Source of the DNA: a phage
Reading direction: 5' to 3' (one strand)
Length of the DNA: 64,000 nucleotides
Sequence record: PZ386958.1
Shown in pieces: positions 18,114-23,494 of this stretch; position 1 is the stretch's first letter, and every line of letters starts with the position of its first letter. A program made the position numbers and the translations under genes. The notes beneath the pieces are model-generated. The model was given only the letters and a program-made list of their open reading frames with translations, had not been told where the DNA came from and ran no database searches.

Positions 18114-18968
18114 ATGTTTGAAAAGATTGATAGTGTTTATTACAAAACACTTGATGAAAGGACTGTAACACAGTTTAAAGATAAATTTATCTATACAAGT
18201 ATCTTGAAAGCAATCACTGATGAATTACAAACTCTAGAGGATGTTTGCTGGCAGATGCACACAGAGAGAAATATCAGGACGTCAGTAGGCCAACAACTTG
18301 ATAACATTGGCTCACTGATTAAAGTTCCTAGACCTTTAGGTGCAGATGATGAAACATATAGGGCTATGCTTTATATCCAAATCTTCCTAAGACGCTCTGA
18401 CACCACCCCAACATTCTTGCAAAAAGCAATTATGACGCTATATGGTGCAACTTTCTCTCAGATTTTTGAGCATATTACTCCTAAGACTGGTGGTATCGTT
18501 ATCCGTATCAACACTAGAAAAAGCGTTCTAGATGCTGCATATACATTGTCAAAGATTTCTGCAACAACTACTGGCTCCGCTGTTATCTTAAGAGATGTTA
18601 CTTTAAAAGGAACTGCTTGGACACCTGTAGAGGTTGCTGATTCAGCGCTTGCCATTGTTGATGATAAAGAGAACTGGTTTGTAACTGATGCTAACAGAGG
18701 TCTTGTCACAAATAACACTGGTGGCTCTCTGGAGTCTAACCTAGTAGGGAGTCTTGCAGATGCTGGTGTTATTGATGGTTACTTTAGGGTTGACAGAACA
18801 GCAAACTCACAGAGTGATGACTATATGACTGTAGATGGGTCTAATAACAGTGGCTATTTTATCGTTGGTAAAGAAGCTATTGCAGGTGGTGCATACGGAA
18901 TCATGGCTGAGGTTGCACAAATTGTCAAAGGTAGAAAAGATAAATCACAACAAGAAGGAAATTCTTAA
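18114..18968 (+). CDS. baseplate/tail protein (hypothetical)
   Basis: 284 aa ORF following the J-like gene. Confidence 0.3.
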
Positions 18969-19270
18969 TGGCAGTTTTAAATTGGTCTACGAATGAAGTG
19001 GATACTGATGGTAATCAGTTAAAAGTTTTACCACCACAGGAAATTCAAGAGACAGGTCTTTTAAAGGGTGAGCCTATGGGTAGACAGTGGTTCAACTATA
19101 TTATCAACTACCTGCTGAATAAAGTAAATGGCACTGTTGGTGAAGTTCGCTCCTATGCAACCGAGCAACCAGATTTAGTGGCTAATGGCTGGAATCTAAT
19201 TAAGTCTGAGACAGGGACTGCATCAACAAGTACAAGAAACCTTTACACATATGAATATGTAGGAGCTTAA
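18968..19270 (+). CDS. hypothetical tail protein
   Basis: 100 aa ORF preceding the tail fiber genes. Confidence 0.3.
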
Positions 19271-19272
19271 TA

Positions 19273-20448
19273 ATGGCAGTAGGTGAAATTCAAATTAGTG
19301 CCTTGCCACAAGCGGCCTTACCAATTGATTTGAGTGATATCTTCCATCTTAAGCAAGGTGTTGAGGATAAAAGATGTACGCTTGAGCAATTGTTAGCACC
19401 TCACGCATCTCTGAGGAATAATCCTCATGGTGTAACCAAATCACAAGTGGGTCTTGATAATGTTATTAACTCACTCCAATTGGTCGCAGCTAATAACTTG
19501 TCAGACATTGTAGATGTTGCTGAGGCAAGAGCAAATCTACAGATTATGTCGTCAGATGAAGTGAACAGTTTAATTCAGAGACATATCGACGACAAAAGTA
19601 ACCCACACAATACAACGAAAGCACAGGTAGGGTTAAGTAATGTCCAGAACTGGACAACATCCAACTTGTACAATGAAGATGCTGATAAGTATGCTACCGC
19701 GAGAGCAGTGAATAATTTATACAAAGCTATCCAAGCATCTTATCCAGTGGGTACTATTCATCTATCTGTTAACTCTGCTAACCCATCCACTTACTTGCTT
19801 TGTGGAGGTACTTGGGAGTTAGTTTCTAAAGGTAGAGCACTAGTTGGTTATGATACAGATTCTAGACCTGTTGGTTCAACGTTTGGTTCTCAGACTGTAG
19901 CATTAACAAATAATAATTTACCAGCACATACTCACTCTATCTATTTAACAGGTGGTGGTCATACACACTCTGCAAGCGTATCTGTCTCTAGTTTTGATTA
20001 TGGTTCAAAAAGTACATCAACTTTTGATTATGGTACGAAGGCAACCGATGGTGCTGGTGCTCACGCTCACACGTTTAGTGGTACAACAAGTAATGAAGGT
20101 AACCATAACCATAGAGTGCCTATGAGGGGTAACGACAGAGGTGGGTCAAACGCTATTACTGCATCCGCTGATGCTGGTGTTGGGTATGCTGTGTATACTG
20201 ATTTGGCTGGTGCTCACACCCATAGCTTCTCAGGCACAACTGCATCATCTGGTGCTCATAGCCACACTGTTGCAATTGGTGCTCATAGCCACACTGTTAA
20301 TATTGGTTCACACAGTCATACGGGCACTGTTACTGTCTCTAGCTCTGAACATACACACTCAGGAACATCTGGTTCTGTTGGTGGTGGTCAAGCATTCAGT
20401 GTTGAGCAGCCATCTTTTGTAGTATATGTGTGGCAGAGAACAGCTTAA
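19273..20448 (+). CDS. tail fiber protein (short) with phage-fiber repeats and His-rich distal tip
   Basis: Tandem N-terminal motifs NPHGVTKSQVGLDNV and NPHNTTKAQVGLSNV; C-terminal HTHS/AHSHTV repeats; ends WQRTA. Confidence 0.7.
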   Translation: MAVGEIQISALPQAALPIDLSDIFHLKQGVEDKRCTLEQLLAPHASLRNNPHGVTKSQVGLDNVINSLQLVAANNLSDIVDVAEARANLQIMSSDEVNSLIQRHIDDKSNPHNTTKAQVGLSNVQNWTTSNLYNEDADKYATARAVNNLYKAIQASYPVGTIHLSVNSANPSTYLLCGGTWELVSKGRALVGYDTDSRPVGSTFGSQTVALTNNNLPAHTHSIYLTGGGHTHSASVSVSSFDYGSKSTSTFDYGTKATDGAGAHAHTFSGTTSNEGNHNHRVPMRGNDRGGSNAITASADAGVGYAVYTDLAGAHTHSFSGTTASSGAHSHTVAIGAHSHTVNIGSHSHTGTVTVSSSEHTHSGTSGSVGGGQAFSVEQPSFVVYVWQRTA

Positions 20449-20458
20449 TTTCTTTACA

Positions 20459-20478
20459 GGGGCTTTATAGCCCCTTTT
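20459..20478 (+). terminator. rho-independent terminator
   Basis: GGGGCT / AGCCCC stem, TTAT loop, then TTTT. Confidence 0.5.
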
Positions 20479-20494
20479 AAGAGGAAAATTCATA

Positions 20495-22849
20495 ATGGCA
20501 GATTACAAATTGAGTCAATTAAACTCAATCGACACAATTCGTTCAGAAGACCTATTGCACATCAGAGTTAAGAAAAGACCTGAAATGTTGGGTGACGAAG
20601 ACCGTAGAATGACCTATCAAGACTTCTTAGCTTCCTTCAAACTAGAAAGGTTTGTTCAGATTGCTGGAAGCACTATGACTGGGGATTTAGGTATTGTCAA
20701 GTTACTTTACGGTGGAAAGTCTGTATTTGACCCTACAGGCTCTTCTGAGATTACTATTGGGGATGTTTTAAAGACTTTTAAACTTAACGCAAATGGTCTT
20801 AAACTAACTATTGCAGACTCTTCAAGGTCAGCAACTGTTTATCATACTCTGAATAAGCCAAGTCCTAATGAGCTTGGTATGAGAACTAATGAAGAGAATG
20901 ATGCAAGATATGCAATACTTGCTGTTACAAACACATTCTCTGGGACTCAGAACATTCAAGGTGATGCTAACTTACTTCGCCTTAGAAACCAAAATGCAAA
21001 TAATGCACAATACATTGAAGGTGTAAACCTAGATGGTTCAGCTAGATGGTGGGTTGGCATTGGTAGTAATGGCTCTGACGAAGTAAAACTGTACAATAAC
21101 AAATACAACTCAGCCTTGACTGTTGCAAGTAATATCTCTGTTAATAAATCTTTAGCAATCACTGGTCAAGTCCAACCTTCTGATTTCTCTAACTTAGATG
21201 CTAGATACTTTACTCAGACGGCAGCTAATCAGAGATTTGCACAGTTAGCTGGTAATAACACATTTAGAGGCTCTAACACTTTCACTAATTTTGTTATTAA
21301 GAAGAATGCTAATGCTATTACTATTCAAAATGTAGATACAACTGCACCTTTGTATATCCAAGCAAGGAAGTCAGATGGAACTAATAAGTGGTACATTGGT
21401 AATGACGGTGATGAAAACATTGTAAACATCTACAACTATTTAGCAAAAACACACGTCTCACTAGGTAACACCATTACCATGAGCAAAACAGTCCAAATCA
21501 CTGGTCAGGTTCAACCTTCGGATTGGACTAATATTGATTCTAGATATATTCCGGCAGCAACATTAAGTACAATTGCAAGAACTAATACTACTAACACATT
21601 CTCTGCACAACAGATTATCAACTCTGATGGTGAAGCTCTTGTGTTACGAGCAAAAACTGCAACGGCCTTATACATTAAGGGAAAGGCTGTTGATGGAACC
21701 AGCAAGTGGTATATCGGTAATGGTGATGCCAGTGGTGACATCTTAAACCTATATAACTACAAGACAGGTAAAGGTCTTAACATTGGTTCAGTATTTGAAA
21801 TGAATGCAAATTTATCAATCACTGGACAAGTTCAACCTTCAGATTTCTCTAACTTAGATGCTAGATATTTCTTAAAAACAAAGCTGTTAAACCAATCTTT
21901 AATGACAAGGACAACTAATAGATTGGATGACCCATCATCATTCAATAAAGATTTTTCAGGGTTTGTAAGAAACAATGGTATTGAGCAGGGTCTGAAAGAT
22001 TTAGCCATCCACGTAGCACATGCTGCTGGTATTGCTCATGCCAGAGGTATTGCTTTTACATATGGGTCTAAAAATCTTGATGTCTTCACATATGCTTATG
22101 GAGCAGATGGAGCATATGTTGGAGAGGCGCAGTTGTACTCAACGGCATTTAAACCATCTCCTTCAGATATTGGTGCATACACTAAAGCAGAAACTGACCA
22201 GAAGATTGCACAGGCAGTAAGTGACTCTACAGACCTTAATAAAATCTATCCAGTAGGTATTGTAACGTGGTTTAACAGTAATGTTAACCCTAATACAGCA
22301 CTTCCTGGTCTAACTTGGACGTACCTGAACAATGGTGTTGGTAGAACTATTAGAATTGCAGCAGCAAATGGTTCAGATGTTGCTACAACTGGTGGTTCAG
22401 ACTCTGTAACGTTGTCTGTTGGTAACTTACCTTCACATACACACAGTTTCTCCGCTACCACTTCATCATTTGATTATGGTACTAAGACAACCAACACTAC
22501 TGGTGACCATAGCCACAACAGAGGTAACATGGAAATCTCTGGTGTGTTTGGTTGGTTCAGAAGCGACAGTGGTGCATTTTACACTGCGAGTGGTGCGTTT
22601 GTGATGGGTGGTAGTCAGGCTTCGCATGGCTTCACAGGCTCTCAATTCACTTACGGTGCTCCTGTTGATTTCCACGCGTCAAGAACTTGGACAGGTGTAA
22701 CAAATACAACCGGTAACCATGCTCACAGTGTTGGTATTGGTGCTCACAACCACACAGTTAGTGGTAATACTGGTGGTACAGGTTCTGGTTCAGCATTTAG
22801 TGTTACTAACCAGTTCTATAAGTTAATGGCTTGGGTAAGGACTGCTTAA
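20495..22849 (+). CDS. tail fiber protein (long) with three internal domain repeats and His-rich distal tip
   Basis: 784 aa; three repeats of ITGQVQPSD(F/W)(S/T)N(L/I)D(A/S)RY; C-terminal LPSHTHSFS / FDYGTKTT / NHAHSVGIGAHNHTV; ends WVRTA like the preceding fiber. Confidence 0.7.
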   Translation: MADYKLSQLNSIDTIRSEDLLHIRVKKRPEMLGDEDRRMTYQDFLASFKLERFVQIAGSTMTGDLGIVKLLYGGKSVFDPTGSSEITIGDVLKTFKLNANGLKLTIADSSRSATVYHTLNKPSPNELGMRTNEENDARYAILAVTNTFSGTQNIQGDANLLRLRNQNANNAQYIEGVNLDGSARWWVGIGSNGSDEVKLYNNKYNSALTVASNISVNKSLAITGQVQPSDFSNLDARYFTQTAANQRFAQLAGNNTFRGSNTFTNFVIKKNANAITIQNVDTTAPLYIQARKSDGTNKWYIGNDGDENIVNIYNYLAKTHVSLGNTITMSKTVQITGQVQPSDWTNIDSRYIPAATLSTIARTNTTNTFSAQQIINSDGEALVLRAKTATALYIKGKAVDGTSKWYIGNGDASGDILNLYNYKTGKGLNIGSVFEMNANLSITGQVQPSDFSNLDARYFLKTKLLNQSLMTRTTNRLDDPSSFNKDFSGFVRNNGIEQGLKDLAIHVAHAAGIAHARGIAFTYGSKNLDVFTYAYGADGAYVGEAQLYSTAFKPSPSDIGAYTKAETDQKIAQAVSDSTDLNKIYPVGIVTWFNSNVNPNTALPGLTWTYLNNGVGRTIRIAAANGSDVATTGGSDSVTLSVGNLPSHTHSFSATTSSFDYGTKTTNTTGDHSHNRGNMEISGVFGWFRSDSGAFYTASGAFVMGGSQASHGFTGSQFTYGAPVDFHASRTWTGVTNTTGNHAHSVGIGAHNHTVSGNTGGTGSGSAFSVTNQFYKLMAWVRTA
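21158..21870 (+). repeat. three tandem ~330-bp coding repeats inside the long tail fiber gene
   Basis: Near-identical ~50-nt cores ATCACTGG(T/A)CA(A/G)GT(C/T)CAACCTTC... starting near 21158, 21497 and 21818. Confidence 0.7.
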
Positions 22850-22928: not shown

Positions 22929-23126
22929 ATGCCTACAATCCTAGCAATTCTTCTAAAAAATCTAGGTAGCTTCTTCTGGAAACTCATTTTATCCCTTCTA
23001 AGTGAATACATGATTGAGAAAGTGTTCTTTAAGCTTGCAAGATACCTTGCGAGTAAAACAGATACACCTATTGATGATGAGTTCGTAGATAACTTAGAAA
23101 AAGCTTTTAAGGGGGAGAATAAATGA
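22929..23126 (+). CDS. small membrane protein (holin-like candidate)
   Basis: 65 aa with hydrophobic N-terminal segment (ILAILLKNLGSFFWKLILSLL). Confidence 0.3.
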   Translation: MPTILAILLKNLGSFFWKLILSLLSEYMIEKVFFKLARYLASKTDTPIDDEFVDNLEKAFKGENK

Positions 23127-23494
23127 AGTGGCTAGAGGAAGCTTTTAAAAATAATATTGGTGCAATTGTTGTTGGTATTTTTAGTGTTATTGGGATGTAT
23201 ACCACCATGCAAGTTTCAAGTGGTAAGCAAGAAGTGTCTGTCACAACAAAGTTACAGCAGCTAGATAATTATTCCAAAGGTAACTATTCAGCTATTCGTG
23301 ATTTACAGTCTGACATGAGACTGATTCAGCTAGGGATGGAGAACCAGAAAGTTCAGTTAGAGAATGTTAAGGGTGAAAACGCAAAACTTACCAAAACCCT
23401 TGATAAATTCTCTGACAGTGTGAACAATCTGGCTCAATCAGTATCAGCCTTGCAAGCTATTACTGAAAAGAACACAAAGAATACTGAAAAATAA
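23123..23494 (+). CDS. membrane-anchored coiled-coil protein (hypothetical)
   Basis: 123 aa with N-terminal TM segment (IGAIVVGIFSVIGMY) and a Gln/Leu-rich predicted coil. Confidence 0.3.
   Translation: MKWLEEAFKNNIGAIVVGIFSVIGMYTTMQVSSGKQEVSVTTKLQQLDNYSKGNYSAIRDLQSDMRLIQLGMENQKVQLENVKGENAKLTKTLDKFSDSVNNLAQSVSALQAITEKNTKNTEK

Follow-up and report, generated by a model that had tools for sequence, protein, structure and literature searches.

The window, by which we mean the whole stretch of 64,000 nucleotides of phage DNA analysed here (sequence record PZ386958.1), contains two adjacent plus-strand open reading frames (ORFs) at positions 19273–20448 (391 amino acids) and 20495–22849 (784 amino acids). 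They raise the question of what kind of fibres they encode, whether the histidine-rich ends of both products reflect common descent, and whether the repeats inside the longer product alter its length. Our analysis indicates that the two genes very probably encode the baseplate fibre pair, a short tail fibre (STF) and a long tail fibre (LTF), of a Felixounavirus (a Felix O1-like myophage), and that both fibres carry a tip of the T4 gp37 type.

The STF gene (19273–20448, plus strand) matched PHROG 2097, annotated as ‘tail fiber protein’, with an E-value of 1.8e-135, and the LTF gene (20495–22849, plus strand) matched PHROG 4277, with the same annotation, over its full length (1283 bits). The interval that spans both genes matched 237 phage records by megablast, nearly all of them Felixounavirus of E. 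coli, Salmonella or Shigella; the best records, also Felixounavirus, are 84–94% identical across 71–92% of the interval, and nucleotide identity to Felixounavirus genomes overall is 80–94%. The genes in the matched records are labelled either ‘tail fiber protein’ or ‘hypothetical protein’, and those syntenic with STF in Felixounavirus genomes carry a tail fiber annotation. Directly upstream of STF, and in a row with the two fibre genes, lie ORFs of 489, 284 and 100 amino acids, an order that is repeated in six Felixounavirus genomes and four metagenomic contigs. The 489- and 284-residue products agree in size with wedge 2 (489 residues) and wedge 1 (285 residues) of Bas63 (Escherichia phage JohannRWettstein), and the 100-residue ORF occupies the place of the Bas63 LTF platform gene gp25. 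STF is the counterpart of Bas63 gp26 and of gp52 of Shigella phage Sf14, and LTF is the counterpart of Bas63 gp27 and Sf14 gp53 (the equation with the Bas63 proteins is based on size, gene order, genus and the published description). The best match to LTF among 5.8 billion proteins was only 81% identical; STF matched one cluster at 99% identity, whose 259 members all derive from Logan assemblies of sequencing runs, and its next relatives were at most 78% identical. The fibre pair therefore represents a combination not yet present in annotated phage genomes.

An earlier description of this locus made from the DNA letters and their translations (the sequence-only reading) had pointed to related histidine-rich segments at the ends of both fibres, and the motifs it quoted are all in place. 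NLP(A/S)HTHS occurs as NLPAHTHS at residue 215 of STF (nucleotide 19915) and as NLPSHTHS at residue 644 of LTF (nucleotide 22424); FDYG(S/T)K occurs as FDYGSK and FDYGTK at residues 241 and 251 of STF and as FDYGTK at residue 659 of LTF; and AH(S/N)HTV occurs as AHSHTV at residues 328 and 337 of STF and as AHNHTV at residue 750 of LTF. The two chains end in WQRTA (STF) and WVRTA (LTF). Alignment of STF residues 157–391 with LTF residues 585–784 gave 28.6% identity (E = 2e-15 with correction for composition, 7e-25 uncorrected), so that the relationship that had been proposed corresponds to a real homologous module of approximately 200–235 residues. Di-histidine (HxH) motifs are strongly enriched in both proteins: STF contains nine, against 1.4 expected (none of 10,000 shuffles reached nine), and LTF contains four, against 0.30 expected by shuffling (P = 0.0003).

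The region is compositionally biased, and the HMMER bias scores of its matches to the T4 gp37 tip (PDB entry 2XGF) are high (30.8 and 33.6), as would be expected if the likeness between the two C-termini arose from low-complexity sequence rich in Gly, Ser, Thr and His, or from convergence, with no common descent. The STF–LTF alignment nevertheless remains significant under composition-based statistics, and both fibres keep a single order of elements (collar, NLPxHxH, FDYGTK, head, GxHxHxVxIGAHxHTV, W.RTA). The alignment starts in the collar, which is not of low complexity and which aligns both between the two fibres and with T4 gp10; the likeness is thus one of homology and not of composition. 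We regard an origin without common descent as extremely improbable, and compositional artefact as the source of the shared tip is ruled out by an alignment that is ordered, anchored in the collar and corrected for composition.

Comparison with T4 places this shared module more precisely. In a phmmer search STF matched the receptor-binding tip of T4 gp37 (2XGF) with an E-value of 4e-25, and its HxH motifs at residues 230, 264, 278, 315, 329, 338 and 347 pair one-to-one with all seven HxH motifs of the T4 protein; those at residues 219 and 360 are two beyond the seven that align. LTF matched the same structure with an E-value of 3.6e-4 as a single sequence and of 9.7e-12 as a family profile, with the motifs at residues 672, 742 and 751 aligned and that at 648 approximately aligned. 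The HxH motifs of T4 gp37 coordinate Fe along its needle (PMC12609058), and the metal-binding role that had been suggested for the HxH tips of the window's fibres is a prediction that is backed by the homology of both to 2XGF.

The collar domain of STF (19708–19938, plus strand), which is of the gp10 C-terminal and gp37 collar type and ends in NLPAHTHS, scored 69.8 bits for Pfam PF21939 (Gp10_C), above the cut-off of 27, and also matched the T4 gp10 chains 2FKK and 5HX2. The LTF collar (22238–22444, plus strand), which ends in NLPSHTHS, aligns to that of STF and is 98–100% conserved, and many relatives of LTF have a precomputed PF21939 match. The collar is followed in STF by a needle and head (residues 215–391; 19915–20445, plus strand) that hold all nine HxH motifs, and in LTF by a needle and head (residues 644–784; 22424–22846, plus strand) that hold its four, with a variable head at approximately residues 676–740. 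The distal head of STF (residues 281–320; 20113–20232, plus strand) is hypervariable, with an identity to 48 relatives of 0.15–0.37 versus 0.63–0.94 elsewhere in the protein. This segment lies where the ascending HxH strands give way to the descending ones, was modelled with a predicted local distance difference test score (pLDDT) below 50, and is predicted to be the receptor-contact region. The identity of the LTF head to relatives is 0.45–0.71.

Part of the STF needle is encoded by a 27-nucleotide tandem repeat (20239–20307, plus strand) that specifies needle rungs of the sequence GAHSHTV(A/N)I; Tandem Repeats Finder reported a period of 27, 2.1 copies and 83–90% matches, and the same element was recovered as repeat family D1 in a DNA repeat search. 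Among relatives the number of HxH motifs ranges from 6 to 10 in the short fibre and is either 4 or 6 in the long fibre, which indicates that needle length varies in steps. Within the set of close relatives used for LTF (the 120 best cluster representatives, with 70–82% identity in the best local alignment and at most 81% over the full length), the four-HxH tip seen here is carried by 79 of 120 members and a six-HxH tip by 41 of 120; their lengths are alike. In addition, approximately 30% of the STF needle aligns at 53–56% identity with prophage tail fibres from E. coli in which a PF07484 collar and PF03335 fibre repeats occur, which suggests that the needle is a module shared with lambdoid prophages.

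Several observations weigh against the assignment of both tips to the gp37 type. LTF retains only four of the HxH layers, and its collar scored 26.2 bits for PF21939, just below the cut-off. The needle fold is not confirmed by structure prediction, as the single-chain AlphaFold2 models are poor: that of STF has a mean pLDDT of 65 and is confident for the collar only (81–90, against 43–71 for the needle), and that of LTF has a mean of 50, with its tip below 50 and only the three repeat bodies usable (beta-rich, pLDDT 74–87, with helical linkers between them). Finally, no chaperone of the gp38 or gp57A type was recognised beside the fibre genes; the ORFs that follow them fall into PHROGs without an assigned function. 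A Foldseek search with the STF model recovered the gp10 C-terminal domain at 36% identity, a weak match (probability 0.63–0.66), and did not recover 2XGF; the top matches in the PDB were pore-forming toxins with long hairpins. The layout of the sequence is consistent with a trimeric, six-stranded needle whose chain doubles back at a distal head, in that HxH strands flank the variable segment and the C-terminal end returns to conserved sequence.

The additional length of LTF lies in its shaft. Its N-terminal part (residues 1–140; 20495–20914, plus strand) is 90–99% conserved across 119 relatives and, by comparison with the N-terminal baseplate-binding domain of Bas63, would serve as the baseplate attachment. 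It is followed by three repeats, 107–113 residues each, in agreement with the three of approximately 110 residues that had been noticed from the translation; they are 35–50% identical to one another (E = 4e-19 to 3e-30), and Pfam PF20744 (gp37_trimer) matched LTF in three stretches with 209.3 bits (cut-off 21.7, E = 6e-63). Repeat 1 (residues 142–248; 20918–21238, plus strand) scored 173 bits against our repeat hidden Markov model (HMM), contains the best PF20744 stretch (residues 159–247), and was modelled as a beta-rich domain (pLDDT 76–84) followed by a helical linker. Repeat 2 (residues 251–362; 21245–21580, plus strand) scored 167 bits and was modelled with pLDDT 78–87; positions 280–342 of the LTF family profile, which fall in this repeat, matched the C-terminal fragment of T7 gp17 (residues 371–553, 4A0U) with an E-value of 2e-4. 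Repeat 3 (residues 364–470; 21584–21904, plus strand) scored 177 bits; its body varies more than those of the other two, with a median identity of 0.35 to relatives and of 0.84 to the best of them. The repeat profile had no similarity by hhalign to residues 40–140 or to residues 461–560 of LTF (probability at most 1%), and the shaft therefore holds three sequence-related repeats and not five.

The best fold match in the PDB to the LTF model was the C-terminal rod of T4 gp34 (4UXG; E = 6e-5, probability 0.97), followed by the Mu fibre and T7 gp17; this match rests on a low-confidence monomer, and its template modelling scores are only 0.10–0.17. When the repeat region alone was compared by phmmer with the PDB, no significant match was obtained and none to gp34 chains.

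The sequence-only reading had placed near-identical DNA cores in the three repeats. Their positions were correct, as the codons for ITGQVQPSD begin exactly at nucleotides 21158, 21497 and 21818, but the cores are less alike than that description implied: over 60 nucleotides, core 3 is 92% and core 2 only 72% identical to core 1, and beyond the cores the three copies are old and have diverged. Core 1 LAITGQVQPSDFSNLDARYF (21151–21210, plus strand) lies at the junction of repeats 1 and 2 and is 94% conserved in relatives; core 2 VQITGQVQPSDWTNIDSRYI (21490–21549, plus strand) is 91% conserved in relatives; and core 3 LSITGQVQPSDFSNLDARYF lies at 21811–21870 (plus strand). All three belong to repeat family D2.

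We were interested in whether these repeats change the length of the fibre. Exactly three repeat units were found by our HMM in all 120 LTF cluster representatives. In a published survey of 18 Felixounavirus species recognised by the International Committee on Taxonomy of Viruses, the tips and, unexpectedly, the shaft repeats were poorly conserved, which its authors attribute to sequence variation and not to a variable number of repeats (PMC12609058). The comparison of related phages that had been proposed as a check for copy-number variation thus gave a number that is invariant in the genus, the outcome named beforehand as speaking against the idea. Beyond the genus the picture is different: a search of cluster representatives at 50% identity returned five full-length relatives of LTF, and two of these, P0241 (1015 amino acids; L007:6001–9048) and P0243 (901 amino acids; L008:6001–8706), have five and four repeat units, respectively. 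Both are located at the syntenic position in Ounavirinae-like metagenomic contigs of 77 and 87 kb, and both are less than 50% identical to any fibre of a cultured phage. Their units are diverged (25–69% identity); unit 4 of P0241 is 69% identical to unit 1 of the window's LTF, and units 3 and 5 of P0241 are 65% identical to each other. These four- and five-unit orthologues, together with similarity breakpoints at repeat and domain borders (described below), point to the gain, loss or exchange of repeats on a long evolutionary time scale.

Two Felixounavirus genomes assembled from metagenomes hold an LTF gene in which one unit matches another as a copy. In L010, from ERZ28650236 (3436–3716 and 4096–4376), unit 1 of LTF equals unit 3 as a 281-nucleotide copy at 100% identity, and in L011, from ERZ28584719 (3669–3968 and 4008–4307), unit 3 equals unit 2, in tandem, as a 300-nucleotide copy at 99%; the junctions of the copies lie inside the conserved ITGQVQPSD cores. 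No such arrangement was found when isolate genomes were searched for it, and the copies may be gene conversions or assembly chimeras.

The DNA cores might, on this evidence, make the three repeats active substrates for unequal or out-of-register homologous recombination that within short periods changes the number of repeats and with it the length of the fibre and the host range. The orthologues with four and five units, the likenesses between units that suggest duplication or movement in P0241, and the exact or 99% unit copies in L010 and L011 all favour such activity, as does the identity of codons at identical residues of repeats 1 and 3 (14 of 19 in the cores, 14 of 31 elsewhere), a comparison that is suggestive at most because the sites are few. 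Set against it are the three units of all 120 nearest representatives and the published survey of the genus without variable repeat number. The shared DNA, approximately 60 nucleotides at 72–92% identity between repeats that are otherwise 35–50% identical, is moreover a poor substrate for homologous recombination, the extra units of P0241 and P0243 are old and diverged, and the exact copies come from metagenome assemblies only and may be chimeric. We consider such short-term activity improbable. What remains of the suggestion that recombination between repeats changes fibre length and host range is therefore the change in unit number over deep time; within the genus the number is constant and there is no evidence of active length switching.

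The third repeat is followed by a variable domain (residues 464–575; 21884–22219, plus strand) in which the LTF family profile aligned to residues 319–427 of the Mu tail fibre protein S (8JU3, E = 1.5e-15). No other part of the gene varies as much as this Mu-S-like domain, which has a median identity to relatives of 0.19 and discrete allele classes. The LTF family falls into length classes of 780–796 and 844–858 amino acids, which differ by approximately 60 extra residues at 461–560 and not in repeat number; the head of the tip is the other place where the 120 relatives differ in length. Substitutions selected by challenge in the LTF of a Salmonella Felixounavirus fell at residues 497 and 534 in that phage's own numbering, and not in the tip (PMC6669636); they may map to the Mu-S-like domain of the window's fibre.

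Conservation along LTF alternates between a scaffold and a set of variable segments. The N-terminus (1–140), the three linker cores, the collar (561–660) and the last 40 residues are conserved at roughly 0.83–1.00, and the repeat bodies, residues 461–560 and the head (661–745) are variable, as are residues 281–320 in STF. The variable LTF segments form deeply diverged allele classes (minimum identity 0.09–0.33) that occur in at least 40 combinations among the 120 sequences; all four class combinations were seen for every adjacent pair of shaft modules (R1/R2, R2/R3 and R3/R4). (A class groups sequences joined by single linkage at 80% identity, and the representatives are mostly metagenomic.) The nearest relative differs for each segment of the window's LTF (97%, 94%, 84%, 98% and 91% identity, against at most 81% for the whole protein), and in DNA comparisons with six cultured phages the similarity breaks off at residues 142–146, 216, 365–370, 439–459, 552, 675 and 740, which are domain borders. 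Individual breaks lie close to core 1 (residues 216–217), just past core 2 (residues 365–370) and near core 3 (residues 458–459 in three relatives and 439 in one). The LTF gene is, judged by these alignments, a strong mosaic with breakpoints at conserved domain borders.

Such mosaicism invites the view that the conserved linkers and collar are mainly junctions for recombination between co-infecting relatives, through which shaft, Mu-S-like and head cassettes are shuffled independently, and that the shaft domains vary because they have their own function towards the host. The deep divergence of the allele classes and their many combinations, the different best relative of each segment and the coincidence of similarity breaks with domain borders are all consistent with it, as are the poor conservation of the shaft repeats, which the Bas63 authors described as unexpected, and the challenge-selected substitutions outside the tip. 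The tail fibres of phages are, on the other hand, usually mosaic, which calls for no special function of the junctions; the placement of the breakpoints is partly circular because a loss of BLAST similarity must fall where conserved sequence meets diverged sequence; the allele classes depend on the single-linkage threshold and on mostly metagenomic representatives; and there is no evidence here that the shaft domains bind anything. We put the probability of this view at somewhat below even. A stronger version, which we find rather doubtful, holds that the ITGQVQPSD..RY linkers serve both as cassette-exchange junctions and as structural joints, with shaft domains swapped between phages and occasionally copied out of register, and that the resulting diversity reflects a host-facing shaft. 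If this were true, exchange at the linkers would result in the replacement of units or in four- and five-unit fibres, the diversity of the shaft and of the Mu-S-like domain would reflect selection (for example, through lateral contacts with glycans or through retraction against the sheath), and the unexpected lack of conservation of the Bas63 shaft repeats would be explained.

We favour the interpretation of the two genes as a baseplate fibre pair with gp37-type tips, which, with T4, Bas63 and Sf14 as guides to trimer state, metal binding, receptor and attachment site, could be built and act as follows. Both fibres are presumed to be homotrimers, as are the fibres of Bas63, and their N-termini would be fixed to the wedge and platform proteins encoded just upstream. 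Each tip would consist of a collar that ends in NLPxHxH, a needle formed by outgoing and returning stretches of the chain, and a small variable head. Along the needle the HxH pairs of the three chains are predicted to face the axis and to hold one metal ion per layer (Fe in T4). The distal variable heads would then contact the host receptor, presumably the core of the lipopolysaccharide, which the literature on the genus gives as the receptor for Felixounavirus. The extra length of LTF comes from the shaft, with its three homologous beta-rich domains of approximately 110 residues (PF20744, of the T4 gp34 rod kind); every shaft domain ends in a strongly conserved ITGQVQPSD..RY helix-and-turn linker, and the third is followed by the Mu-S-like domain. 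The conservation of the linkers is most simply attributed to a structural constraint on registration of the trimer. As a by-product, linkers and invariant collar would supply the homology by which relatives exchange shaft and tip cassettes.

This architecture closely resembles two that have been visualized directly. Electron cryo-microscopy of Bas63, published in 2025, revealed a short fibre of 430 Å (gp26) and a long fibre of 630 Å (gp27) (PMC12609058), each with a C-terminal tip like that of T4 gp37 that comprises a collar, an HxH needle and a head (PMC12609058). The fibres of Bas63 (PMC12609058) and of Sf14 (PMC11821841) were seen by this method as trimers attached to the baseplate of the virion. 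Bas63 and the window share the genus, the location of the fibre genes after the wedge and platform genes, the layout with two fibres and the gp37-like tips in both. They also share long-fibre beta-helix shaft domains separated by helix-and-turn motifs, and variation of tip and shaft with a constant number of repeats. They differ in that the Bas63 long fibre has six HxH motifs and an HHxH motif, against four HxH motifs in the window's LTF; in that five shaft domains were counted there, against three sequence-related ones here; and in that seven HxH motifs were reported for the short fibre there, against nine counted here. The PhageMaP paper on Bas63 contains nothing on these fibres. Sf14 (a Mooglevirus of the Ounavirinae) encodes gp52 of 391 and gp53 of 792 amino acids with gp10-C-like and gp37-like parts (PMC11821841), and resembles the window in the sizes of its fibres, in the possession of two retracted fibres (∼430 and 630 Å), in the gp10-C-like domain and in the gp37-like tip; it belongs, however, to another genus, and its authors interpreted the domains through Mu gp49 and T7 gp17 without describing an HxH needle in the fibres.

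The window's tips share with gp37 (2XGF) the order of collar, needle and head, and STF shares with it seven HxH motifs and the FDYGTK segment, but in the window one and the same chain forms both the baseplate-attached fibre and the tip, whereas T4 assembles its fibre from four proteins, gp34 to gp37. With four HxH motifs, the needle of LTF is also much shorter than that of gp37, and the chaperone genes of T4 have no recognised equivalent nearby. The gp34 C-terminal rod (4UXG and 5NXH) resembles the LTF shaft in its PF20744 repeats and in its fold (4UXG being the best match to the LTF model), but not by any direct sequence match of the repeats to gp34 chains in the PDB. Mu S (8JU3) and the T7 gp17 fragment (4A0T and 4A0U), finally, resemble LTF at residues 464–575 by profile and at repeat 2, respectively; in those proteins the domains adjoin the receptor-binding end, whereas in the window they are internal shaft modules ahead of a gp37-type tip.

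Our finding re-describes a known architecture: publications of 2025 on Bas63 and Sf14 already cover the HxH tip of gp37 type common to both fibres, the repeats of the shaft and their constant number in the genus. Its practical value is in annotation, as ‘hypothetical’ is still the label of these genes in most database records. The map sets a conserved scaffold (N-terminus, linkers, collar and C-terminal end) apart from exchangeable cassettes (three shaft bodies, residues 461–560 and two heads), and thereby offers join points for chimeric Felix O1-type fibres in phage engineering. It also provides modest leads on the evolution of fibre length and specificity, namely the four- and five-unit orthologues, the shuffling of cassettes and two possible conversions of units within the gene.

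The shaft of STF contains an internal repeat as well: two NPHxxTKxQVGLxNVxN motifs, read from the translation, at residues 50–66 and 110–126 (19420–19470 and 19600–19650, within 19420–19650, plus strand). Members of the family conserve N50, H52, T55, L61 and N126, and the stretch that holds these motifs is matched by many PHROG tail-protein families.

The neighbouring genes add several minor observations. The 100-residue ORF upstream of STF (18968–19270) overlaps the stop codon of the wedge-1 gene by one base and ends two bases ahead of the STF start; it matches PHROG 4141, which is listed as of unknown function, and its equivalence to Bas63 gp25 is positional. Downstream of LTF lie two small ORFs, at 22929–23126 (65 amino acids) and 23123–23494 (123 amino acids), and then genes for thymidylate synthase and dihydrofolate reductase on the opposite strand. 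The two small ORFs are found 3' of the fibre genes in all relatives, have hydrophobic N-termini and a membrane-associated look by eye, and match PHROGs without an assigned function; orthologues of the first, 63–65 amino acids in length, carry Pfam PF26925 (Phage_PM2_Gpl). The pair could be lysis or fibre-assembly factors. At roughly 24–32 kb of the window the GC skew flips its sign (to about −0.15 to −0.17), which coincides with a block of minus-strand genes (thymidylate synthase, dihydrofolate reductase and others) between plus-strand modules.

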